Of a DNA stretch of 64,000 nucleotides, positions 9,400-61,460 are shown one piece after another. This stretch comes from Malacoraja senta (Eukaryota). The position numbers and the translations under genes are program-made. The stretch covers positions 7,442,001 through 7,506,000 of the forward strand of contig CM075988.1 of assembly GCA_038087875.1 (NCBI GenBank), given 5' to 3'. Each line of letters starts with the position of its first letter. Position 1 is the first letter of the stretch. The notes beneath the pieces are model-generated. The model did not search any database and was not told the origin of the DNA. It saw only the letters and a list, made by a program, of their open reading frames with translations.

Positions 9400-9927
9400 G
9401 TCCAAACGTCTCTTAAATGTTATTATAGCCTCGACCACCAGCTCTGGATGAAAAAGTTGCCTCTTGGGTTCGTATTTAATCATCTCCCTCTCACTTTAAA
9501 CCTATGTCCTCTTGCTTTTGATGCCTCTCCCTTGGGTAAAAAGCCCTGTACATTCACCCTATCTATTTCCCTTATGATTTTATACACCACTACTATAAGA
9601 TCACCCCTCAGCCTCCTGCGCTCCAAGGGACAAAATCCTAGTCTGCCCAACCAGTTTAGCCATTCAAATCCTGGCAACATCCTTATAAAACGATATTGGG
9701 GTTACAGCAATTTATTGGCGGCTTCCAAAGGCAAATTATTTGATATTGTATAGATTTACTTTTATCACGTAAGAAGGGTGAATATTACACATTTTGCTTT
9801 TGCAAATGATCCCAGTACTCTTATCAATGGAGTTTTTCTCAATATAGAATTATAACATCGTCCATGTGGTAAATTATAACAGAGTCCATATGGTAAATGA
9901 GTATGAAGGAACTTGCTTCCACTGAAG

Positions 9928-10022
9928 TTAGACATAATGCTGGAGTAACTCAGTGGGACAGTCAGCATCTCTGGAGAGAAGGAATGGGTGACGTTTTGGG
10001 TCGAGACACCTTCCTCAGACTG
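9928..10022 (-). mobile_element. Mini-PLE single arm
   Basis: gctggagtaactcag...ggaatgggtgacgttttgggtcgagac...tcagact; hammerhead core degenerate. Confidence 0.75.
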
Positions 10023-10562
10023 AGAGTTAGGGGAGAGGGAAACTATATGTCTAATTGTCTACAGTAGCATTAGTTACCATGTAATCTGTTTGCTGTGTCA
10101 CTTGCCCTAGTATTGATCCCCCGATAGATCAGTTATTCAAGCCACTGCTACTGTTTAGATCGTCATGGAGGACAGGAATGTGTGGTATTAATTCATGTCC
10201 CCTGGTATGGAAGTCGAGATGATACGGTCCGCCTCCATTTCTCTTGCCTTGGGAGTAGAAATCTAGCCATGTTTCTCAGCTCTGATCTCCTGCTGGTGGG
10301 TATGTGGACTGAATGAGCAGTGAAGTGGATGTGCGGACAGACAGAATTACTTCAGTTCTAATGCAGACATCATTAAATAGTCTGTGATTTGCAACCCAAA
10401 ACACGTCAACCTTGGATCCAGATGCTTTAAAGAATGGAAGTGAGAAAAGCAGATGGCAGACAGAGGTCGGGGAAAGTACTTATTATGTTGCCTATCACAT
10501 ATTTGAGAGAAAACAAACAGTTATTTACCTTGGAGTGGAGACAATTTAATCTGCTCTTCAAG

Positions 10563-12329: not shown

Positions 12330-12755
12330 AAGATAGAGCTTGAAAACAAGTCCTTTGGCCCACCGAGTCCACACCGACCATCGATTACCCTTTCACACTA
12401 GTTCTATGTTATCCCACATCTTACACACAAGGGGGGATTTAGAGACTAATTCATCTACAATCCTGCATCTCTTTGGGATGTATGTAGGAAGGAATTGCAG
12501 ATGCTGGTTTAAACTGAAGATAGACACAAAATGCTGGAGTAACTCAGCGGGACAGGCAGCATCTCTGGAGAGAAGGAATTCTTTCTCCCCAGAAATGCTG
12601 CCTGCCCCGCTGAGTTGCTCCAGCATTTTGTGTCTTTCGGATGTGTTGGGAATCCCCTGCGGACACAAGGAGAACATGCAAACTCCACGCAGGCGTTGTC
12701 CGAGGTCAGTATCGAACCCGTGTCTCTGGCTCCGCGTGGCAACAGCTCTACCAGC
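12330..12755 (-). mobile_element. HE1-like SINE containing a mini-PLE palindrome (12482-12632) that lost the ribozyme-bearing centre
   Basis: Inverted arms fused at aaggaattctttc; approximate duplication tctttgggatgt (12470-12481) / tctttcggatgt (12633-12644). Confidence 0.75.
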
Positions 12756-14490: not shown

Positions 14491-14712
14491 TGTGCAGGAA
14501 GGAACAGCAGATGCTGGTTTATACCGAAGACACATACAAAGTGTTGGAGTAAGTCAGCGGGTCAGGCAGCATCTCTGAAGAAAAGGTGCAGGCAATGTCT
14601 AGGGTCGGAAACTTTCTTCAGACAGGAAGAGCCTGGAAGAAGAGTTCCAACCGGAAACATCGCCTGTTCCTTTTCTCCGGAGATGCTGCCTGACCCGCCA
14701 AGTTACTCCAGC
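14491..14712. mobile_element. Palindromic mini-PLE, diverged
   Basis: Long arm tgtgcaggaaggaacagcagatgctgg... plus inverted arm ending ttactccagc. Confidence 0.75.
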
Positions 14713-14915
14713 TGTCACCCTTGATTCTTGAAGAATTTCAATTTTGTCACTTGCTAATTTGATATCCCTCAATAATTGCATTCCACTTTCCTTGATTAAT
14801 AGAATGCATTAAATAATTACCTAAAAAAGAATCCCCAAACGTAATTTTCTGTGCTTACCCAGTGCTGGGAGCAGTAAAGAAGAAACTGCTTTTGCTGCCA
14901 TTTGCATCATGCTTG

Positions 14916-17094: not shown

Positions 17095-17410
17095 GGGGGA
17101 GGCACAGTGGCGCAGCAGTAGAGTTGCTGCCTTACAGCGCCAGTGACCCGGGTTCGATTCGGATGACGGGTGCTGTCCGTACGGAGTTTGTACATTCTCC
17201 CCGTGACCATGTGTGTTTTCTCCTGGTGCTCCGGTTTCCTCCCACACTTCAAAGGCGTACAGGTTTGTAGGTTGATTGGCTTTGGTAAAATTGTAAATTG
17301 TCCCTAGTGTGTAGGATAGTGCTGCTGTACAGGTGATCACTGGTCCATGCGGACTTGGTGGGCCGAAGGGCCTGTTTCCGTGCTGTATCTCTAAAGTCTA
17401 AATTCTAAAG
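17095..17410 (+). mobile_element. HE1-like SINE, full length
   Basis: tggcgcagcag A-box, ggttcgattc B-box, core, tail. Confidence 0.88.
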
Positions 17411-17737
17411 ATGATATTGTTTTGGAATCCATTGCATTGTAGGTGATTAATTTTCTGTCTGTATCTTTGGGGAGGTAAGGAATTGGTCAAGGTTCTTATT
17501 CCCACCTTCTATTTGAAGAGTTTTGGTGGTCAATATGGATTTGCACATAAGGCAGGATTACTAGGAGGGCCAATAATTTCTTGATGTTTCTGTCTTTGCT
17601 AAGTACTATCCCTTTTCCAAAAGCCTCTTTCCTTTCCTTGAATCCTGTTGCCTCATAGGCTTGTGTCCATCTTTGAAACAGATTCAAGTTAGAATCTGCC
17701 TATGTTTCGTTTAGTTTCAAAGAAACTTTTAGAAACG

Positions 17738-18010
17738 TTTTAGTTTAGCAGAAACAAGCCCTTCGGCCCACCAAATCCGCACTGACCAGTGATCCTTGCA
17801 CATTAACACAAGCCTACACACACACTAGGGACAATTTACACTTATACCAAGCCAATTAACCTACAAACCTGCACGTCTTTGGAGTGTGGGAGGAAACCGA
17901 AGATCTCGGAGAAAACCCATGCGGTCACGGGGAGAACGTACAAACTCAGTACAGACAGCACCCATAGTTGGGATCGAACCAGAGTCTACCTCTGCGCCAC
18001 CGTGCCGTGC
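17738..18010 (-). mobile_element. HE1-like SINE
   Basis: Reverse complement of family consensus. Confidence 0.85.
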
Positions 18011-18524
18011 GGCGGCATTACAACCTATCCCATCTTCAGTCTCTGCAACAAACTCACGCCCAAAACAGTTGTTGTCATGTTTTAATCTAGGTTTAGAAAT
18101 TCTGCACGAAAACAAGCCCTTCGGCCCACTGAGTCCATGGTGACCATCAATCACCCATTCACAGTTGTTCAAGAGTAAAGGTTGTTTAATTGTCATTTGT
18201 ACTGAAACGGAACAATGACATTCTTATTTGCAGCAGCACAACAAGTCTGTAAACAGTGTTCAATAGATAACATAATAAGACAAACAGAAATATAGTTCAA
18301 TAAATAATTAATAATATCAATATTAGTACAACACAAAAGCCTGAAGTCCCTAGTGCAACCAAGACAGTTGGTAGTTTGTATTTTAGTTGGCGTTTGCAGT
18401 GTTCAAGAATGTGCTGGTGGAAAGAAGCTATTCCTGAACCTGATTTTCAGACTCTTGTACCTTCTTATAGGTATATACCTTCTTACACCTCTTATACCTT
18501 CTTCCCGATAGCAGGAGTGAGATG

Positions 18525-18727
18525 TGTAGGAAGGAACTGCAGATGCTGGTTTAAACCGAAGATAGACACAGAGAGCTGGAACAACTCAGCGGGACAGGCA
18601 GCATCTCTGGAGAGAAGGAATAGGTGACGTTTTGTGTCGAGACCCTTCTTCAGTCTGAAGGAAGTCACCCATTCCTTCTCTCCAGAGATGCTGCCTGTCC
18701 CGCTGAGTTACTCCAACCTTTTGTGTC
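18525..18727. mobile_element. Palindromic mini-PLE inside a Rex1/Babar-like fragment
   Basis: Perfect 16-bp duplication tagcaggagtgagatg at 18509-18524 and 18728-18743. Confidence 0.85.
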
Positions 18728-19761
18728 TAGCAGGAGTGAGATGACAGCTTGGCCAGGGTGGTATCGGTACTTCATCCCACTTTCCAATCCACACCCTACA
18801 CACCAGAGGGAACTTTGCACAGGCCAATTAACTTACAAACTCGCATGTCTTTGTGATGTGGGAGCAAACCCGAACAGCCGGAGGAATCCCACATGGTCAC
18901 AGGAAGAATGCACAAACTCCACACAGGCAGCACCTGAGGTCATGATCAAATCCGAGTCTGTGGAGCTGTGAGGCAGCAACACCACCAGCTGCGGCCTTCA
19001 GCTGCCTCCTAAGCCTGGCGATGATGGATTTGCATCTCCCCCTGAGAATGATAAAGGAATTTTTTAAGGCCATCACATGTACAAGTGTGACTGTTAGTCG
19101 CATATAATACCGAACTAAAGCCCTGTGCCAGATGGAAGGGTTTGAGAAGAAATTAACGTTGGTGTGGTCTAAAGTCCTAACCTTTCCATCACCCCAGTTC
19201 TATAATATGAAGAATTGAATTCTGGACACTGGTCCTACTACGATTTGGGTTTAGAGCATCAGGTGAGAATTTTAATTTTTAAATAATAAAGGAGAGAGGC
19301 TAATTAATGGCAAGGCAGACAATTGTGCGTTCCATAACTTTAAGCACTTTTTCATTGAATGTCAGAACGGCACAGCTACTGTGCTGGATGGACTAAGTCT
19401 GACGCTCATGGTTTCACTCACAGCTGTTAGCTTAAATTGTAGAAGCAGTTTACGAGGTTCTCACTTTAACAACTGCTGCAGGAGCTCCTGCAAACATTTG
19501 ATATTCTCTGCGTATTGCAGTGTAGCAGCAGGTGTGAATAACATAAGAAATATGGTGCTTTTGGTTATTTGCTGCTTGAGTGGCGCCTGCAAAAGGCAGG
19601 GTGACAGTGGCACCCACTGGGCCTTCTCCACCTTCAAACTCTCAATTGTGAAACCTCTCTCTTTTTGAGTTCCATTTTAGGCTCTAACATCTTATCAAAT
19701 CCAGACTTGTGCTCTTTTAGATCCCCGTGTCTACCCTGTTCTGTCCCTGTGTCTATCCTTG

Positions 19762-20064
19762 GGCGGCAGAGTGGCTCAGCGGAAGAAATGCTGCCTTATA
19801 GCTCCACAGACCCAGGTTCGATCCTGACTATGGTTGCTGTCTGTATGGAGTTTGTACGTTCTCCCTGTGACCGCATTGGTTTTCTCCGGGTGCTCCGGTT
19901 TCCTCCTGCACTCCAAAGATGTACAGGTTTGTCGGTTAATTGGTTTTGTGAAATTGTAAAAAAATTGTCCCCAGTGTGTAGGATAGTGTTGGTGAATGGG
20001 GTGATCACTGGTTGGAGTGGACTTTGTGAGCCAAAGGGCCTGTTTCAGCGCTGTATCTCCAAAG
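19762..20064 (+). mobile_element. HE1-like SINE
   Basis: A and B boxes, core, tail. Confidence 0.85.
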
Positions 20065-20236
20065 TCACTTTCCTATTGTGACTTTCAGTTTTATTGCTGC
20101 CATACTAGACTGATCCTGATTGATAGTCAAATTGGAAATATTAAATTTGAGAGGCAAAACAGTACATTCACAATGGGTAGACACAAAATGCTGGAGTAAC
20201 TCAGCGGGACAGGCAGCATCTCTGGAGAGAAGGAAT

Positions 20237-20271
20237 GGGTGACGTTTCGGGGCCAGACCCTTCTTCAGACT
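20237..20271 (-). ncRNA. Minimal type I hammerhead ribozyme motif in mini-PLE (20178-20312)
   Basis: Minus strand reads agt-CTGAAGA-a-ggg tctggc ccc-GAAA-cGTC-accc. Confidence 0.6.
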
Positions 20272-20809
20272 ATCTTCGATTTAAACCAACATCTGCAGTT
20301 CTTTCCTGCACATTCCCTCTATACTTTACTCATTCAACTATCAGCCCAGATGCCTCTTCAATGTAAATATTTACTCTTCCTGTCTCCTTGATCTTCTCTA
20401 GCAGATCAAACCCGATGCCAACTATCTTTGCGTGGAAAAATTTACCCCACTAATCCCCTTTAAATCACCTTCCTCTAGCCTGAGAGCTGTGCCCTCTAGT
20501 TTTAGACACCCATGCCATGGGATACAGACCATGCCTGACTACCCGTCTATGCCTCACAAAATGTATCTATCTTTGTCATGTCACCTCCTTTGTTCAGGGA
20601 AAGTGGACTTTAGACTTTTAGACTTTAGAGATACAGCAGCGAAACAGGGCCTTTGTCTCACCGAGCAGAACCCCTGGAGAAAACCCACATATGGGGAGAA
20701 CGTACAAACTCCATATAGATAGCCCCTGCAATCCGGATCGAACTGGGGTCAGTGGTGCTGCAAGGCAGCAACTCTACTGCTGCACCATTGTGCCGCCCAA
20801 GTCGACCCA

Positions 20810-26612: not shown

Positions 26613-26658
26613 CGAAGATAGATACAAAACCGAAGATAGATACAAAAAGCTGGAGTAA

Positions 26659-26973
26659 TGGGGCTGTCCCACTGTACGAGCTAATTCAAGAGTTCTCCTG
26701 AGTTTCCCCTGATTCGAACTCGGAGAATTACGGTAATAGCCGCTTGTAGGTACTCGGGGCTCTCGTGGACATTTTTCAACATGTTGAAAAATCTTCACGA
26801 GTCTTCACAAGCTTACCGCGTTTCCCAAGTACCTGCCGTTAGCGTTACGAGCCGCTAAGAGAGGTCCCGAGCTCTGACGTACCCGCTACGTACATTCTAC
26901 GTGCTTACCACGAGTTTGATTTTTTTTTTCTCGGGAGAGCTCTTGAATTAGCTCATACAGTGGGACAGCCGCT
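26659..26973. mobile_element. PIF/Harbinger-type MITE
   Basis: TIR ggggctgtcccactgtacgagctaattcaagag / ctcttgaattagctcatacagtgggacagccgc; TAA at 26656-26658 and 26974-26976. Confidence 0.82.
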
Positions 26974-27496
26974 TAATTCAGCGGGACAGGCAGCATCTCT
27001 GGAGAGAAGGAATGGGTGATGTTTCGGGTCGAGACCCAAGGGTCTCGACCCGAAACATCACCCATTCCTTTTCTCCAGAAACTCTATCACTGGGTATGTA
27101 CAGTGCTTATGTTGTATTTGCAATCTGCTGCTGAATTTAGAAACATATCAGCTATCATTCAGAGTATTCAACTGATCTAAAAATACTGCTGCACTTCGTT
27201 GAAGAGAAAGGTTCTCATTTATCCCCTAATCAATGGTGCAGATGTTATCAGCTCACTCTTGCATTGTTGCTAGTGTGTAGTTGCTGTGTGTGAATTGACT
27301 GGCTTGTTTTTTTCTATTATGGTCAAACACACGGGTTTCTCACAGTTATGCGATACAAGTTCTTTCTTTGGTCAATTGATTTGAAAGGAGCCAAAATACA
27401 AAATTTCACAAATTCAAACAAGTGTCATAAGAGTTTTTATTGTTATGTCCCCCGAAACAGAACAATCTTACGTGCACCATAACAGGTTTGTAAACA

Positions 27497-28110: not shown

Positions 28111-28235
28111 AACAGACAGAATAGTCGAGCATGGCCTGCTCTTGAGAAGTCAGGGCTGGTTCACCACTTTCCACACTTTTGGATGGAAACTCCCGGGAAT
28201 GTATTATTCTTTCAGCTGATAGTTACTTTCTGCTT

Positions 28236-28343
28236 ACACAAAAATGCTGGAGAAACTCAGCGGGTGCAGCAGCATCTATGGAGCAAAGGAAATAGGTAAC
28301 GTGTCGGGCCGAAACCCTTCTTCAGACAGGGTTTGTTACATTT
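28236..28343 (-). mobile_element. Solo PLE terminal repeat, same subtype as 35143-35240
   Basis: Diagnostic catctatggagc.aaggaaataggtaa; 14-bp duplication gttactttctgctt at 28222-28235 and 28344-28357. Confidence 0.8.
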
Positions 28344-28709
28344 GTTACTTTCTGCTTGTTTTGTTGCATTAATTATGGTGATTTCCACTTTCCTGTTTCG
28401 GTATTCACATTCTTCTATCTTCTCTTATAAGAAAATAAAACATTCAACGCCCATTATTAAATCTCCCATTTAAATTATGACCATTATTATTTTCAAGGGG
28501 TCCACAGTACTTGTGACTATCTTTCCCTTAATTACAACAAAACATTTATTTCTATTCATACTCACTTTCAGTGGCACTTACCATCTATTTAATCATCTTT
28601 TGCTGTTCTTTGTTTTTCTACCACACACCAGGTTTTATGATAGTTTTTGCCTTTGGTTCTTAATCTGTTATCTATTTCTAAGTTCTCCCCATTTTGCTTA
28701 TTTCTGTAG

Positions 28710-30319: not shown

Positions 30320-30744
30320 GGTAGGAAGGAACTGCAGATGCAGGTTTAAACCGAAGATAGACACAAAATGCTGGAGTAACTCAGCTGGACAGGCAGCCTC
30401 TCTGGAGAGAAGGAATGGGTGACGTTTTGGGTTGAGACCCTTCTTCAGACTGAATAAAGGGCCTGTCCCACTTTCACGACTTAATTCTTTCATCCCGACC
30501 ATTTTTTTACTCGTGGACATTTTTTATCGGGCTGAAAAAAATTAGCCCCGACTTACCTGATGCCACGAGTACCTACGGCTAGCATAACGAGCTGCTACGA
30601 TATATCTACGAACTCGTAATACCTCCTACGGACTCGTTACGAACATTCTGCGAGTTTGAATCAGGGGAAAACTCGGGAGAATTCTGAATTACCTTGTGAA
30701 AGTGGGACAGGCCCTTAAGGGTCTGTCCTGCTGAGTTACTCCAG
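30320..30744. mobile_element. Mini-PLE palindrome interrupted by a MITE
   Basis: 12-bp duplication cttcatatattg at 30308-30319 and 30745-30756. Confidence 0.8.
30458..30715. mobile_element. PIF/Harbinger-type MITE
   Basis: Perfect 20-bp TIR agggcctgtcccactttcac / gtgaaagtgggacaggccct; TAA at 30455-30457 and 30716-30718; internal blocks shared with 26659-26973. Confidence 0.85.
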
Positions 30745-30847
30745 CTTCATATATTGTTATTGGTTTATTATTTTCACATGAACTGAGATACGGCGAAAGG
30801 TTATTTTTTTTACTGCAACTCAGTAACACTTGCCTGTTAACTGCATA

Positions 30848-32110: not shown

Positions 32111-32772
32111 GATCACTTATGACTTGAATCTCCTTGCATGAAACAATCGATCAGGAATTTTGGAAGTGATGTGGAGGGTGTTTGGGAGAGAGAGAGTGAT
32201 TTGGCAGTGCAGGAAGAAAGGGCAGGAAATGTGACTGGAATTGCTCTCCCTGGTGCTGGCATGGTCTCGATTTGGCCGAGAGTCTGCTTCCTATATGACA
32301 ATAAAAGATCCTCGTCTCTAGATTCAACGCTCGACACATCAACTCCTTCCAAACCCTTCTCCATTCACGTGCTGCACTGTGTGACTTGCACATCTGTTCC
32401 CAAGGTGCTTCATTCATTATCTTGCTGTTTTTAATTTGTGTATCTATAAACCTTAACCCGGCCAACAACTCTCGACTTACTTGCCTAATAAATTACTGTT
32501 CTTCCGGTAGTTCAATTGTGAATTCATCTCTCGTCACCCATTGCTCTCTAGCATTAAGCCAGACCTTAAGCCTTTCCCTTTCAGCCTTGCTCACTTATTT
32601 AAGTCCCTACTTAACAAAATCAAGCCTCTTTTCAACTTTGTGCATAGTTTTGTGGAACTTGACTCCGCAAAGTGCTTTTATACTTTATAGTTCGGGCTGT
32701 TACGTAAATATTGTTCAGTCTAATTTTCACCCATAAATCATCTGTCAGTATTCTAATGTTCATTGATTTCTG

Positions 32773-33010
32773 GGATAGACACAAAAAGCTGGAGTAAATC
32801 AGCGGGACAGGCAGCATCTCTGGAGAGAAGGAATGGGTGACGTTTCGGGTCGAGACCCTTCTTCAGACCCTTCTCCAGTCTGAACAAGGGTCTCGACCCG
32901 AAACGTCACCCATTCCTTCTCTCCAGAGATGCTGCCTGTCCCGCTGAGTTACTCCAGCATTTTGTGTCTACGGTTTAAACCAGCATCTGCATTTCCCTTC
33001 CAACACATAA
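32773..33010. mobile_element. Young, near-perfect palindromic mini-PLE
   Basis: About 90-bp inverted arms nearly identical; tgatttctg on both sides (32764-32772, 33011-33019). Confidence 0.85.
32835..32870 (-). ncRNA. Minimal type I hammerhead ribozyme motif, intact core
   Basis: Minus strand gggt-CTGAAGA-a-gggtc tc gaccc-GAAA-cGTC-accc: 4-bp helix I, helix II, palindromic ACGT in place of helix III. Confidence 0.7.
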
Positions 33011-33354: not shown

Positions 33355-33630
33355 GACTTTAGAGACACAGCATGGAAACAGGCCATTCGGCCCACACCAA
33401 ATCCACACCACTAGTACTATCCTACACACTTGGGACAATTTACGATTTTATCAAAGCCAATTGATCTACAAACCTTTGTCTTTGGAGCCTGGGAGGAAAC
33501 CAGAGCACACGGACAAAACCCATGGTGTCACAGGGAGAGCGTACAAACTCCACACATAGCACCCGTGGTCGGGATTGAACCCGGATCTCTGACGCTGCAA
33601 GGCAGAAAACTACCGCTGTGCCACCATGCC
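33355..33630 (-). mobile_element. HE1-like SINE
   Basis: Reverse complement of consensus. Confidence 0.8.
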
Positions 33631-34714
33631 ACTTGGACTCAAAAGATACACTCGAGAGACTTGTGTGGATACATCCTGTTAATCAAATATCCAGGCCCAC
33701 AAAATGGTGGATGTGTAGATTACTAAGGAGGTGCTGTACTGCTGAAGGTATAATCTTTTTGGATGGGATGTTACACTGAGACTCTATCAGTCATCTTGGG
33801 CGATTGTGAGTAATTCTGTGGTACTGTCGCAAGGAATAGCGGGGACTTCTCCCCCATCGCGGTTTTGTCCTGCATAAATCTCTCAGTATTTAAAAACTAT
33901 CAATTATTTATTTGTCTTGTTTGTGGTTTTGTACAAATTGATCTCTGAGGTTCTTGAATCATTGTGACGAGAACCGTTCTCAAGTATTCCACCCTTTTTT
34001 TGTGCGAGGACTTCCTGAGATTACACACGGTGATTACAAAAGGTGGTCTGAAGAAGAGTTCTGACACGAAAATTCACCTCTTCCTTTTTCTCCAGAAATG
34101 CAGCCTGACCCGTTGAGTTGCTCCAGCACCTTGTGTCTATCTGCTCTTAACATGGGTTCCTTGCACGAATGGAGACTGGCCAATTCACCAAGGAACCCAT
34201 GTTTAGAGCAGATAGACAATTCAAGGTCTGTCGGTTGAAGCAGGTCTGAAGAGGTCGTGTCCCTTGGATGTGCGCCCCCACCTGCCCAAACCTCTTGCAA
34301 TTCTATGCATAGGAACCAAAGCCCAATGTGCAAGGACAATTAAACTACCCCACAATCATTGTAAGTGGGTGTTGACAATCAAGTGAGTTGCCATTTCCAA
34401 CCATCTGTTAATAATTATCTTTGCAATTACAAGCTATGGAAGGAGACCTCCTGAGAAAGTGGCACTGGATTTGAGCAACAGATGTTTATACAACAAGGCC
34501 ATCAGGTCTCCATGTGATGGCGTCAATTATGGCCGACCCGAGTGACCTGCTCAATCAATCCTCCCTTGGTTTTATTTATGGATTTCCCTGATTCAAAATG
34601 TCAGCTTGATGTGATGACTAAATTCAGACATTGACACTGCTCCTTTCTCCTTAAGGCAGCTGCGGATAGATGTGCGCTGTGAATGCAGTCTGAAAGTGTT
34701 TATCCAAGTGTTTA

Positions 34715-35240
34715 TTCCAGGTGCGGCAGAGGTTCACCTGCACCTCCTCCAACCTCATCTGTTGCATCCGCTGCTCTAGATGTCAGCTGCTCTACATCGG
34801 TGAGACCAAGCGTAGGCTTGGCGATCGCTTCGCCCAACACCTCCGCTCGGTTCGCAATAACCAACCTGATCTCCCGATGGCTCAGCACTTCAACTCCCCC
34901 TCCCATTCCGAATCCGACCTTTCTGTCCTAGGCCTGCTCCATGGCCAGAGTGAGGACCACCATAAATTGGAGGAGCAGCACCTCATATTTCGCTTGGGCA
35001 GTTTGCACCCCAGCGGTATGAACATTGACTTCTCTAATTTCAGGTAGTCCCTACTTTCTCCTCACCCTCTCAGCTCTTCCTCAGCCCACTGGCTCCACCT
35101 CTTCCTTTCTTCTTCCCGCCCCCCTCCCACCCACCCACACATTAGTCTGAAGAAGGGTTTCGACCCAAAACTTTACCTATTTCCTTCGCTCCATAGATGC
35201 TGCTTTACCCGCTGAGTTTCTCCAGCGCTTTTGTCTACCT
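34715..35240 (+). mobile_element. Penelope-like element 3' fragment: GIY-YIG endonuclease (to stop at 35047) plus terminal repeat
   Basis: FTCTSSNLICCIRCSRCQLLYIGETKRRLGDRFAQH...AQHFNSPSH...KLEEQHLI...GMN; then ctgaagaagggtttcgaccc...gatgctgc...gctgagtttctccagc; tttatcca at 34699-34706 and 35241-35248. Confidence 0.9.
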
Positions 35241-36432
35241 TTTATCCATGAACTCATGTGTTCATAAAAACGCACCTGCCAGATACTTGATGAAGTTGTG
35301 GGAATACATTTTTTAAACTATGTAAGCTTTTGTTTCCGAGAGATCCACTCCAGGCTTGATATGTCTGCTTTCGTATACTCCTGGAGCTTTGATCTGATGT
35401 CTTGCAGCCTGCTACTATTCCCACATGCACGCAGAGACTTTTCCCCCCATCTCCAGAACTCTCTCAGCTGATAAGCAAGATTGCGGGAAGTAAATAATAC
35501 TTTGATAAGGCTGCTGTGATTTCTATTCGAGTTGATCGCGGTAGTGCGCTGGAGATCAACATTTAATTCCTAGAGATTTCCGGATAATCATGCAGACTAT
35601 CAGGGGATTGCCATCTATATCTCTCCCAGCAAGATGCTTCAATCCACATGCAGGGTTGAATTTCCACATCAGGTAACCGCTGTTAAACTGTGGGAATACT
35701 GAATGCCTTAAAGGGGAAAGGAGAAGCATATGCCTGTGTTTTCACACAGAGGAACTTCAATCACCAAGAATTTCAGGCTTGGATTCTAGTCTGCATTTAG
35801 AGACAAATAGAACTTGGATTCTAGCCCGCATTGATGGACACATAGAATACAGTGGGAGCAAGAGCTAGAATAAGAGTTGGAAAGAGAGGAAGACTGATCA
35901 GCATTCTTTCTCCAGAATGCAGTACATTTACTCTGCCTGATTACTGAGGGTATATGGATGGATGTTGGGTGGAAATGCAGATTCTTGATTAGTAAGGGTT
36001 TCAAAGGTTATGGGGAGAAGGCAGGGAATGGGGTTGAGAGGGAAAGATAGATCAGCCATGATTGAATGGCTGAGTAGACTTGATGGGTTGAATGGCCTAA
36101 TTCTGGTCCTGTGACTTATGAAGGTTGGCTTTAACTGATGTTCCACAATGGATGGACAACCACTGATATTGACAAATAAGATGATTCGCATTTTGGACAT
36201 TATGGTATCCAACTTCTCCAACTTCTAGATGAGGAATCTGCAGTGAAATCTCTGATTCTGCAACAGTGCACACAACAGTATAAATGGTAAGAATTTTATT
36301 GTGAATGGTTATTAAGGATTGTTTTTTTTTTTGATACATTGCTTCGTCTTCATATAGATGACTGCAATTCCAATTCTGTGGTTTGGAGGAACTCCTGAAG
36401 TGCTTTTATTTATCTGGGTGCTTTTTATTGGT

Positions 36433-36635
36433 AAGAAAGAACTGCAGATGCTGGTTTAAATTGAAGGTAGACAAATGCTGGACGACCAGCGGGTGAGGCA
36501 ACATCTCTGGAGAGAAGGAATGGGCGACGTTTCGGGTCTGAAGAAGGGTCTCGACCCGAAACGTCACCCATTCCTTCTCTCCAGTGATGCTGCCTCTCCC
36601 GCTGAGTTACTCCAACATTTTGTGTCTACCTTTGG
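36433..36635. mobile_element. Palindromic mini-PLE
   Basis: 11-bp duplication tttttattggt at 36422-36432 and 36636-36646. Confidence 0.82.
36534..36569 (+). ncRNA. Minimal type I hammerhead ribozyme motif, intact core; predicted cleavage after 36565
   Basis: gggt-CTGAAGA-a-gggtc tc gaccc-GAAA-cGTC-accc. Confidence 0.7.
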
Positions 36636-36955
36636 TTTTTATTGGTGTTCCTTGGACTTGGAACATGGTCCATATAACAGTACAACACAGCAACTATATC
36701 TGTACTCAACAGTATGTCAAGTTAAAGTAATCATCTCTGCCTGCACATGATCCAGATTCCTCCACCCCATGTATGTCTGTGCCTATCTAAAAAACATTTA
36801 AATGCCACAATCATATCTGCCTCCCCCACCACCCTCAGTATGTAAACAAAAAAAATTGCCCTGTACATCTCCTTCATACTTTGCCCCTCTCACCTAAAAG
36901 CTCTGCCATTGTATAAATTGCTATGCCATTGTATTGAACTTGCATTTATAGAGAA

Positions 36956-48806: not shown

Positions 48807-49107
48807 GGGCGGCACGGTGGCGCAGCGGTAGAGTTGCTTCCTTACAGCGCTTGCAATGCCGGAGACCCGGGTTCTATCCTGACTACGGGTGCTGTCTGTA
48901 CGGAGTTTGTACGTTCCCCCAGTGACCTTTCCCCGAGACCTTCGGTTTCCTCCCACACTCCAAAGACGTACATGTTTGTAGGTTAATTGGCTTGGTATAT
49001 AAATATAAAATTGTCCCCAGTGTGTGTACGATTGCTGGTCGGCGCTGACTTGGTGGGCCAAAGGGCCTGTTTCTGCGCCATATCTCTAAAAAATAAAAAT
49101 AAAAACT
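48807..49107 (+). mobile_element. HE1-like SINE, full length; tail-to-tail with a minus copy at about 49130-49410
   Basis: ggcggcacggtggcgcagcggtagag head, core, tail. Confidence 0.85.
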
Positions 49108-49429
49108 ACATGGGTGGAGTTTGGAGTTTGGTGACAGCATGAAAACAGCCCCTTTGACCCACCAAGTCTATGCCAACCTCTATCACCCATTCACACTAGC
49201 ACTGTTAATCTCACTTTCTGATCGACTCACTGGACACTAAGGGCATTTTACAGAGACCAATTAACCTACAAACCTGCACGTCTTTGCAATGTGGGAGGAA
49301 ACCAGAGCACCCAGAGGAAACTCATGTGGTCGCAGGGAGAATGTGCAAACTCCACACAGACAACACCCGAGGTCAAGATCGAACCCGTGTCTCTGGCCCT
49401 GTGAGGCAGCTGATCTTTTTAACTTTTTT

Positions 49430-52150: not shown

Positions 52151-52511
52151 TCCAAAGGTGCTGTCACCAGAATCTTAAGAAAGGATTCCAGCAATTTTCT
52201 GATAATTAATTTTCGGCCAATTGGTTTGTGGTTCCCTATCTTCTTTTCACTGTTCTTTTTCTTGAATAGTGGTGTTTCACTGGCCAGTTTCAAACAAATT
52301 GAGACTGTAGAAACAAGGAACTGCAAGATGCTGGTTTGCAAAGAAGGACATAAAGTGCTAGAATAACAGTGGATCAGGCAGCATCTCCGGAGAACATGGA
52401 TAGGTGACGTTTTGATCATCAACGGGTTTTAGGACCTAAGACGTCACCTATCCACATTCTCCAGAGATGCTGCTTGAGTTACTCTAGCACTAGGTGTCCA
52501 ATTTAGACTGT

Positions 52512-58225: not shown

Positions 58226-59664
58226 TTAAGAAACAATGTATACAAAAAGATGGACGAAAATGATCGTGTATCAATGCTGCCTTATTTCAAAGATAGTGCA
58301 GTCCATGAACTATTAGTCCATGAAGTGCATGCGGTCCATGGACATTAGAGCCAGGAATCATTCAATAAAGTTGCCGTGCAGTTTATCGTCATACTCAATA
58401 TAATTACGAGATAAAATGTCAACCCCATGTTTATTGGCAGACAAAGGAACTGCAGGTGCTGGTTTATACCAAAGATTGACACAAATGCTGGAGTACCTCA
58501 GTGGGTCAGGCAGCATCTCTGGAGAAAAGACAAAAGAGGATAGAGAAAATGGCATTGATTTGTCCCATTTTTTTGGACTTAGTTATTTTTGGCCACAACC
58601 CTACTACAATCAGTCTGAAGGAAGGTCCTGATCCGAAATATCATCTCTTCTTGTCCTCCACAGATGCCGCCTGACCTGTTGAACTATGAGTTATGTTCAA
58701 CTCATGATTCCTGCATCTTTGGTGGCTCTTTTTAAATTATAAAATCAATCTAATCTTGTTGGGGGAGGGGTGGGGGGTGCAACTTCATGCTTTGTGTACT
58801 GTTGGTGCATTAACTTTCTTGCAACCAGCAAACAATTGTGATATTCTAAAATGTTCAAGACCAAGGACAAAAATATTGACTCCCCATCACCTCCTGTACG
58901 TATGTTCGCACAAGGATTGGGCATATGCACAGAACAAGGAAGGAAACAAACTGCAAAAGTTTAAAAATATATATATATTTTGGAGATGTTAAATATAATC
59001 TGTACTCGAGTAGTCTGTGAAGTAGTTACTCATTACAAGGAGTGCGTGTGATCTGGTAATCGGCAGTGGTTGTTGTAGAATTCTGCATCAGTACAGCTGG
59101 CACAGCGGGAACGTTTTTGGGATCTGTGGACTTGCATGTGAGCTAAAAGTCTCTGTTTCTTATCAGCCTCCGTCGTACAGAAACTGTTCCCTGGACCATC
59201 ATTCCCTGTAGAATGTGATTTTGGCTTTTCAAATTGCCCCCTGGGGAAAAGGCATTTCGTAGTGAAATGGCCTTGGACATCTGACGTCCACAGCAGTGCA
59301 TCAAATGGGCATCTGTGGGAAGTGTGAAATTGCAGGAAACAGCAAAGCCTGTGGATTTATAAAAGTACCATTTTAGGAAGCAGTGAATATGCGCAGGTAG
59401 CTATTTGTAGTACAATTGTTTAATTCTGTTCATGTACTAGGTTGTAGGAGCAGAGCTTGTGTGCTTTTCCTGTATCACCATCTTAAAGAACAAAAAAGGT
59501 ATCCTTAGTATATGCTCAGTGTTCAGTTTCTGCCCTTTCCCCATGTTGAAGATCTTCAGTGAAGCCAGTCCCTTTAAAACAAAAAAGCCAGTTTATAATT
59601 TTGAACAAATTGCATTAAATCAATAAACTGTTGTAGCTGTAGGGGCTATGTTATGATTTGCATT

Positions 59665-61049: not shown

Positions 61050-61460
61050 GAGAGTCATAGAGTCATACAGCATGGATACAGGCCCAACGGCCCAACTTGC
61101 CCACACCGACCAATATGTCCCATCTACACTAGTCCCACCTGCCTGCGTTTGTCCCAGATCCCTCTAACCCTATCCTGTCCACGTACCTGCCTAAATGACT
61201 GGCATTAAGGTGAGAGGGGAAAGATTTAATAAGAACCTGAGGGGAAACTTTTTTTATTCAGAGGGTGGTGGTTATATGAAATGAGCTGCCAGAGGATTTA
61301 GTTGAGGCAGATACTATAACAATATTTAAAAGACACTTGAATGGATATGAAAGGTTTGTAGGAATATGGGCCAAACGTGGGAAAATGGATCTAGCTTAGT
61401 TCCATTGGTCGGCAGGGACGAGTTGGGCCGTAAGGCCTGTTTCCGTACTCTATGACTAAG
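61050..61460. mobile_element. Two CR1/HER1-like 3' fragments in inverted arrangement
   Basis: gagtcatagagtcatacagc... (minus tail) and ...gggccgtaaggcctgtttccgtactctatgact (plus tail). Confidence 0.7.

Follow-up and report, generated by a model that had tools for sequence, protein, structure and literature searches.

Here we present an analysis of a 64-kb stretch of skate DNA (hereafter the window, meaning all of its 64,000 nucleotides; all positions refer to it), in which positions 34715–35241 likely represent one dead, 5′-truncated insertion of a Penelope-like element (PLE), a retrotransposon, that carries a hammerhead repeat as its own terminal pseudo-LTR (pLTR). Such a terminal pLTR is a textbook feature of PLEs. 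Related short hammerhead repeats, dispersed through the window as solo arms and head-to-head pairs (together, the mini-elements), would have been inserted by PLE enzymes, most likely as short cDNA by-products. We assign a probability of about 0.7 to this explanation as a whole.

Overall structure of the insertion

All parts of the locus lie on the plus strand. The open reading frame (ORF) extends from stop to stop over positions 34694–35047, and homology to PLE proteins (tblastn) begins at 34715. From there, identified by homology and contigs, the 5′-truncated end of a PLE ORF (34715–35047) encodes the C-terminal 110 amino acids of a GIY-YIG endonuclease and ends in a TAG stop codon (35045–35047). 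A pyrimidine-rich 3′ UTR (35048–35143), defined by its sequence and its repeat-level depth, joins the stop codon to the pLTR arm (35144–35241), which is of subtype B, contains a decayed minimal type I hammerhead at 35145–35176 and has no optional tail. The ORF piece and arm are flanked by two copies of TTTATCCA (34699–34706 and 35241–35248), a candidate 8-bp target-site duplication with a chance of about 1–1.4%; the same search found a duplication of at least 8 bp at 43 of 2992 random position pairs. Between the left copy and the ORF piece, an 8-nt filler at the 5′ junction (34707–34714) is, by its sequence, a copy of target bases 34695–34702.

We compared the locus with three genome-scale contig sets of related organisms (X1, X2 and X3, with 89377, 75362 and 115160 records, respectively, at 80% likeness). 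Summed contig depth, which serves for boundaries and rough order only and not for copy number, is approximately 30–50 in the flanks, jumps to millions at 34715 and falls back behind approximately 35241 in all three sets. There is no gap across the UTR, for which the depth is 0.7–1.6 million. In each run, 193–233 contigs extend the ORF upstream of 34715 (in-frame translation LTSIQGPKQS), and 405 X3 contigs run on behind 35241 into tail-like sequence. The ORF, UTR and arm are tiled by contigs that are 11–12% divergent from the window (X1 record 6, X2 record 15 and X3 record 23). Five of the 15 joints listed connect the ORF interior to 35143/35144, with short sides of 21–27 nt; no contig among those listed has at least 31 nt in both the ORF and the arm, and each of these links is weak by itself. 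In addition, a zebra-shark gene model with RT and endonuclease (P0005) extends 119 amino acids past the endonuclease into SLMKGLRPKR, which is identical to the translated arm at 6–7 of 10 residues (11 and 1 of 20000 shuffles).

The same order of parts would also arise if a common but unrelated repeat had inserted 99 nt past the ORF by coincidence, and arms are dense enough in the window that a same-strand start of any arm falls within 150 nt with a probability of 3–5%. For the rare subtype B, however, this probability is 0.2%. The shared, bracketing duplication, the continuous repeat depth and its limits, the paralogous bridges and other ORF-to-arm joints, the read-through of P0005 and the layout known for PLEs also stand against a chance landing, which is largely refuted already and which we consider highly improbable. 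As the sequence-only reading supposed, the adjacency of ORF and arm is best seen as the architecture of the family and not as a one-off product of chance.

No empty site is present among the 15 listed of 280 joints, no full-length copy was obtained, and the single-insertion reading, which we consider likely, therefore leans on the 8-bp match with its chance of approximately 1%. In X3, contigs cover both junctions of the insertion at the orthologous site and reach 45 and 35 nt into the element; X2 likewise has the insertion there (right junction 34 nt, left junction 30 nt), and X1 probably does (left junction, 29 nt). Being common to the orthologous sites of X1–X3, it would be older than the split of these organisms.

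A dead Neptune- or Nematis-type endonuclease

The endonuclease piece at 34715–35047 is the sole match to PLE proteins in the 64-kb window (7 query proteins). It is 81% identical to P0001 over 109 amino acids and 62% identical to P0004 over 113 amino acids (tblastn). Homologue sets comprised 30 matches among 124 candidates and, in a second search, 109 of 111. The top matches are gene models of the skates Leucoraja erinacea and Rhinoraja longicauda (75–82% identity), followed by matches in other sharks and rays (63–67% identity). The Pfam GIY-YIG match is weak (E 0.005, below gathering); by eye, the conserved R, H, E, N and CCHH residues of the domain are present at the C-terminal end of the ORF. 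The first Tyr of the GIY motif is replaced by Cys in the window copy (codon 34760–34762), and is present in 97–99% of contig depth in the three sets, in which the majority base at 34761 is A. The RT and the CX2-5CxxC linker are absent from the window copy, which is cut just downstream of the linker. The fragment had been put forward as the autonomous partner of the mini-elements. Lacking RT and linker, with a truncated endonuclease and the GIY Tyr lost, it is instead a dead fossil of an autonomous family.

The type of this family is indicated by its relatives, which at 45–63% identity combine RT (RVT_1) and GIY-YIG in one ORF (P0004, P0014 and P0028). CX4CX2C precedes the endonuclease as the first regular-expression match in 14 of the 30 longer relatives, including the closest, P0001, and the motif is also seen, by eye, in P0003. 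A CX2-5CxxC linker characterizes Neptune and Nematis and is lacking in Penelope/Poseidon, according to excerpts of PMC8557442. Because the relatives carry this linker, the family is assigned to the Neptune/Nematis type and not to Penelope/Poseidon, by motif rather than by RT phylogeny, and the original label of Penelope is replaced. The EN+ PLEs of the Neptune clade, as described in those excerpts, have the RT, C-terminal GIY-YIG and CX4CX2C linker of the relatives and display the 5′ truncation, pLTR, inverted copies and 30–40-nt tail at one end only that are observed here. By contrast, the window copy is only a 527-nt remnant, and Nematis is also possible.

Pieces of the same endonuclease also form the ends of three skate gene models, P0001 (DUF4518), P0002 (LINE RT) and P0027 (neuromedin-U receptor 1), likely through annotation read-through into the repeat. 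Two further models outside the window, P0003 (Rhinoraja longicauda, XP_078265981.1) and P0018 (Heptranchias perlo, XP_067851243.1), are annotated as receptor-transporting protein (RTP) 3-like (PF13695) and end in a PLE zinc linker and GIY-YIG domain. They are colinear over their length with 54% identity, have the same fusion point and have in common the changes GETERRL and EKR (EQH in the window). In the endonuclease tree, the two are not recovered as sisters. They could represent an old domesticated RTP–endonuclease fusion in sharks and skates, or parallel exonization; no paper combining both terms and no Atlas match was found. For the element itself, viral contigs (0 loci), a GTDB pattern scan (0) and a PDB sequence search (0) gave nothing. 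A metagenome scan gave two loci, both of which were rejected as unrelated: they are weak and have neither an RT match nor an arm.

The hammerhead motif

In the arm at 35144–35241, CTGAAGA starts at 35147, 99 nt after the TAG stop codon. The sequence-only reading was accurate both in placing the repeat about 100 bp behind the stop codon of a GIY-YIG fragment and in describing its GAAA as decayed to AAAA (35167–35170). A second position of the core is also off (CTT for CGT), and the arm departs from the intact core CUGANGA...GAAA...NUH at 35167–35173. Three arms elsewhere in the window carry an intact minimal type I hammerhead under a strict descriptor, against 0 in 50 shuffles. Across 20 window copies the stems are paired in 84% of cells, compared with 8–46% when slid; covariation of the stems within these 20 copies is not above shuffles (165/500). 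Rfam returned no hammerhead match in the window, only palindrome-driven miRNA-like matches below the gathering score. Single-strand folding returned the hammerhead fold for none of four arms, in keeping with the view that the motif has to dimerize. The arm family is described here as a predicted minimal type I hammerhead repeat, intact in some copies, with self-cleavage likewise a prediction.

The closest counterparts are the minimal type I hammerheads of PLE pLTRs described in the sections of PMC4209133 that treat them. They too have CUGANGA, an extra base before stem II, a G–C closing pair, palindromic 15.2–16.2 positions and no helix III, and they occur mostly as single motifs from truncated PLEs, with some opposite-strand pairs. 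The skate repeat differs in its stem I of 2 bp only, its stem II of 4–5 bp and, in the window copy, its broken core. Skates are not named among the PLE pLTR hammerheads in those sections.

Solo arms and head-to-head pairs

The window contains 41 profile matches to the arm (approximately 1 per 1.6 kb), and arms and tails together make up 6.2% of it. Counted from the hammerhead start, the arms have two end points, about +90 and, in the form with a 40-nt tail, about +130. The best match of the 35144–35241 arm within the window is a solo subtype-B arm on the minus strand (28236–28343; 89% identity over 93 nt) that has no tail, a 16-nt filler at its 5′ end and a 14-bp duplication (28222–28235 and 28344–28357). 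This solo had already been recognized from the sequence as a copy of the same subtype with its own 14-bp duplication, and the duplication is exact. Its hammerhead core, too, is broken (GACA). In each of the two subtype-B insertions, a short filler at the 5′ junction (34707–34714 and 28328–28343) repeats neighbouring target bases; the second filler also contains a 7-nt inverted piece of the arm. More generally, exact 8–16-bp duplications flank 7 of 28 units, against 4 of 398 random pairs. The duplication-defined 5′ ends of five solos lie between −18 and about +4 of the hammerhead start, and there is no separate head.

Eleven pairs of arms are arranged head to head. Exactly one tail is present in ten of these pairs (2673–2958, 12483–12643, 14493–14714, 18524–18735, 20171–20310, 30321–30750, 32771–33008, 36431–36636, 52315–52503 and 58441–58685) and two tails in none; in the eleventh, one arm is cut at +48. 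Tails are present on 9 of 19 solos (partly by eye), and independence would give the pattern of the ten pairs a probability of approximately 0.001. The tail-less arm ends short in three of the ten one-tail pairs. The subtype-A pair at 36431–36636 has its tail on the left arm only, an 11-bp duplication and an intact minimal hammerhead in the right arm; the pair at 32771–33008 shows the opposite layout, with the tail on the right arm only, a 9-bp duplication and the intact minimal hammerhead in the left arm. Arms within a pair are not clearly more alike than arms of different pairs. The junctions differ in all 11 pairs, which indicates that inverted pairs are not copied whole.

We conclude that the mini-elements are likely of PLE origin and mobilized by a PLE-type enzyme, because of their variable duplications, head-to-head pairs and single tails. 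Tails confined to one end of an inverted structure have been described as a hallmark of PLEs (excerpts of PMC8557442 and PMC3846280). Solo arms might alternatively be the leftovers of recombination between direct pLTRs, in the manner of solo LTRs; such recombination would leave a lone arm still flanked by a duplication, and rotifer solo pLTRs are attributed to recombination or deletion in the available part of PMC3846280. It does not, however, give head-to-head pairs with one tail, and it predicts variable lengths of upstream UTR, whereas the five duplication-defined starts cluster at the hammerhead edge and the many contigs that start at 35144 suggest a sharp common 5′ edge. We regard this origin of the solos as very unlikely.

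The ORF-linked subtype accounts for only 3 of 22 near-complete arms, and the two subtype-B arms are joined weakly in the tree (88/63). Judged by these arm sequences, the window copy thus belongs at most to a sister of the family that gave rise to most mini-elements. The claim that the mini-elements derive from PLE terminal repeats therefore stands as to their PLE insertion signatures, but not as to the window family as their main source. A protein search with the translated subtype-A arm gave 0 matches, which is weak evidence, and an ORF link of the majority subtype was not found in this way.

Mobilization of the mini-elements

An explanation of the two 3′ ends is suggested by the Poseidon element PAc of Anolis, the enzyme of which has two RT start sites in vitro and cuts and extends both strands (PMC11167929). 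The skate arms resemble PAc in their two 3′ ends (approximately +90 and +130), as two RT start sites predict, and in a tail that ends in AC-rich sequence. PAc belongs to the Poseidon clade, different from that of the skate family, and the two-start-site model thus comes from another clade (PMC11167929).

At the 34715–35241 locus, the endonuclease of an intact copy would have nicked an AT-rich site, at which the reverse transcriptase would have primed. Synthesis would have started at the tail-less one of two fixed sites, approximately 95 nt behind the hammerhead start, copied approximately 527 nt and halted inside the endonuclease, and repair may have left the 8-bp duplication and the 8-nt filler. 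As their duplications, tails and inversions suggest, the solos and head-to-head mini-elements would be the same terminal segment, brought in by an enzyme of this kind, each of them as a short cDNA made afresh from a pLTR-bearing PLE RNA. Such a cDNA would end at the 5′ edge of the hammerhead, either because the RNA begins there or because the enzyme stops there. Since the pLTR also forms the 5′ end of the element, short copies with a fixed 5′ edge would be the product if synthesis on an ordinary PLE transcript began internally, close to the 5′ end of that transcript. Hammerhead cleavage was rejected as the cause of this edge in the solos, which lies approximately 30 nt upstream of the cleavage site.

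Alternatively, the mini-elements may be true non-autonomous families, in which PLE proteins act in trans to copy short RNAs that come from solo or tandem arm masters. A sharp shared 5′ edge speaks for such masters: 436–638 contigs per run start at 35144 behind unrelated upstream sequence (agreement 0.32–0.33 in the three sets). The 41 arm matches contrast with one ORF piece in 64 kb, and the arms outside the ORF-linked subtype lack a detected ORF link. Head-to-tail arm joints (35226 to 35144) are found in 2, 4 and 4 contigs of the three organisms and could let the hammerhead work as a dimer; retrozyme-like tandem arm arrays with such joints are possible elsewhere in these genomes. Mobilization in trans by pLTRs alone is documented in excerpts of PMC3846280, and non-autonomous PLE derivatives are known (bioRxiv 2026.07.22.740005; excerpts of PMC8557442). 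Against masters, there is no promoter head, all 11 pair junctions differ, tailed and tail-less forms are mixed, and one subtype-A arm (9921–10045, minus strand) retains, by eye, approximately 20 nt of pyrimidine-rich UTR-like sequence upstream. The contig depth of the ORF is of the same order as that of the arm, which suggests that copies with an ORF are not rare. Ending at a start site may also make an arm a poor template, as the RNA of the Anolis element had to reach +172, beyond the start site at +111–118 (PMC11167929). We consider such families possible but doubtful. By-products made as fresh cDNA from PLE RNA are the most likely origin, at slightly better than even odds when set directly against SINE-like masters, and both may occur.

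A more far-reaching version of the master model describes a headless, PLE-driven skate SINE: a 95/130-nt hammerhead repeat with its own non-coding masters and perhaps a million copies, with one-tail head-to-head pairs that would record the priming of both target strands by a single dimeric PLE enzyme from two fixed start sites. We regard this version as unlikely. SINEs have a Pol III head derived from tRNA, 5S or 7SL RNA upstream of a LINE-like 3′ end, and the five duplication-defined 5′ ends start at the hammerhead.

Relation to known systems

The insertion of short repeats by a PLE enzyme is an arrangement already described in other animals. Metazoan non-LTR retrozymes are likewise non-coding hammerhead repeats related to pLTRs, and they have been proposed to use PLE proteins and likened to SINE–LINE pairs (bioRxiv 2026.07.22.740005; excerpts of PMC7229834). 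Retrozymes are tandem repeats with a hammerhead in each unit, whereas the copies in the window have minimal hammerheads and lie scattered as solos and head-to-head pairs, and no tandem hammerhead units are present at 34715–35241. Non-autonomous PLEs of Chlamys such as MRC1 have a 3′ end in common with autonomous families, as here, but are described in excerpts of PMC8557442 as defined families that possess a separate body and form head-to-tail arrays; the skate arm lacks such a body. Non-autonomous PLEs are also mentioned in the accessible parts of PMC8557442, PMC8969392, PMC7229834 and bioRxiv 10.1101/596502. A search of the open-access literature found no report of these repeats in skates.

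The comparison with a SINE–LINE pair, drawn from the sequence alone, can be kept for the PLE origin of the mini-elements but not for a SINE-like lineage with masters, given the missing head, the 11 different junctions and the 3 of 22 near-complete arms of this subtype. Nor is it new: a published study that sampled one chondrichthyan already draws this analogy for the terminal repeats of PLEs (bioRxiv 10.64898/2026.07.22.740005). The present locus adds a skate example to the known PLE layout and corrects its label from autonomous Penelope to dead Neptune-type remnant. At 11 inverted pairs in 64 kb and approximately 1 arm per 1.6 kb, such insertions should be very numerous in a skate assembly. 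They would constitute a data set for the origin of PLE tails, inversions and sharp 5′ ends, a part of the PLE cycle, and for whether vertebrates have dispersed non-autonomous PLE families.

Other repeats in the window

Copies of a palindromic MITE-like element, the ends of which are related to AAGGGCCTGTCCCACT, lie at 435–702, 26653–26979 and 30457–30716. Two of these three copies lie inside arm pairs and are thus younger than those arms. A 30-bp hairpin with 97% complementarity (34134–34218) directly follows an old arm. Other abundant repeats, unrelated to the hammerhead arm, also occur as inverted pairs (17145–17986, 20026–20661, 48923–49324 and 61061–61457), with 266–566 nt between their arms. 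The only ARAGORN match is a tRNA-Cys call inside a repeat (33562–33629), which we take to be probably the head of a tRNA-derived SINE.
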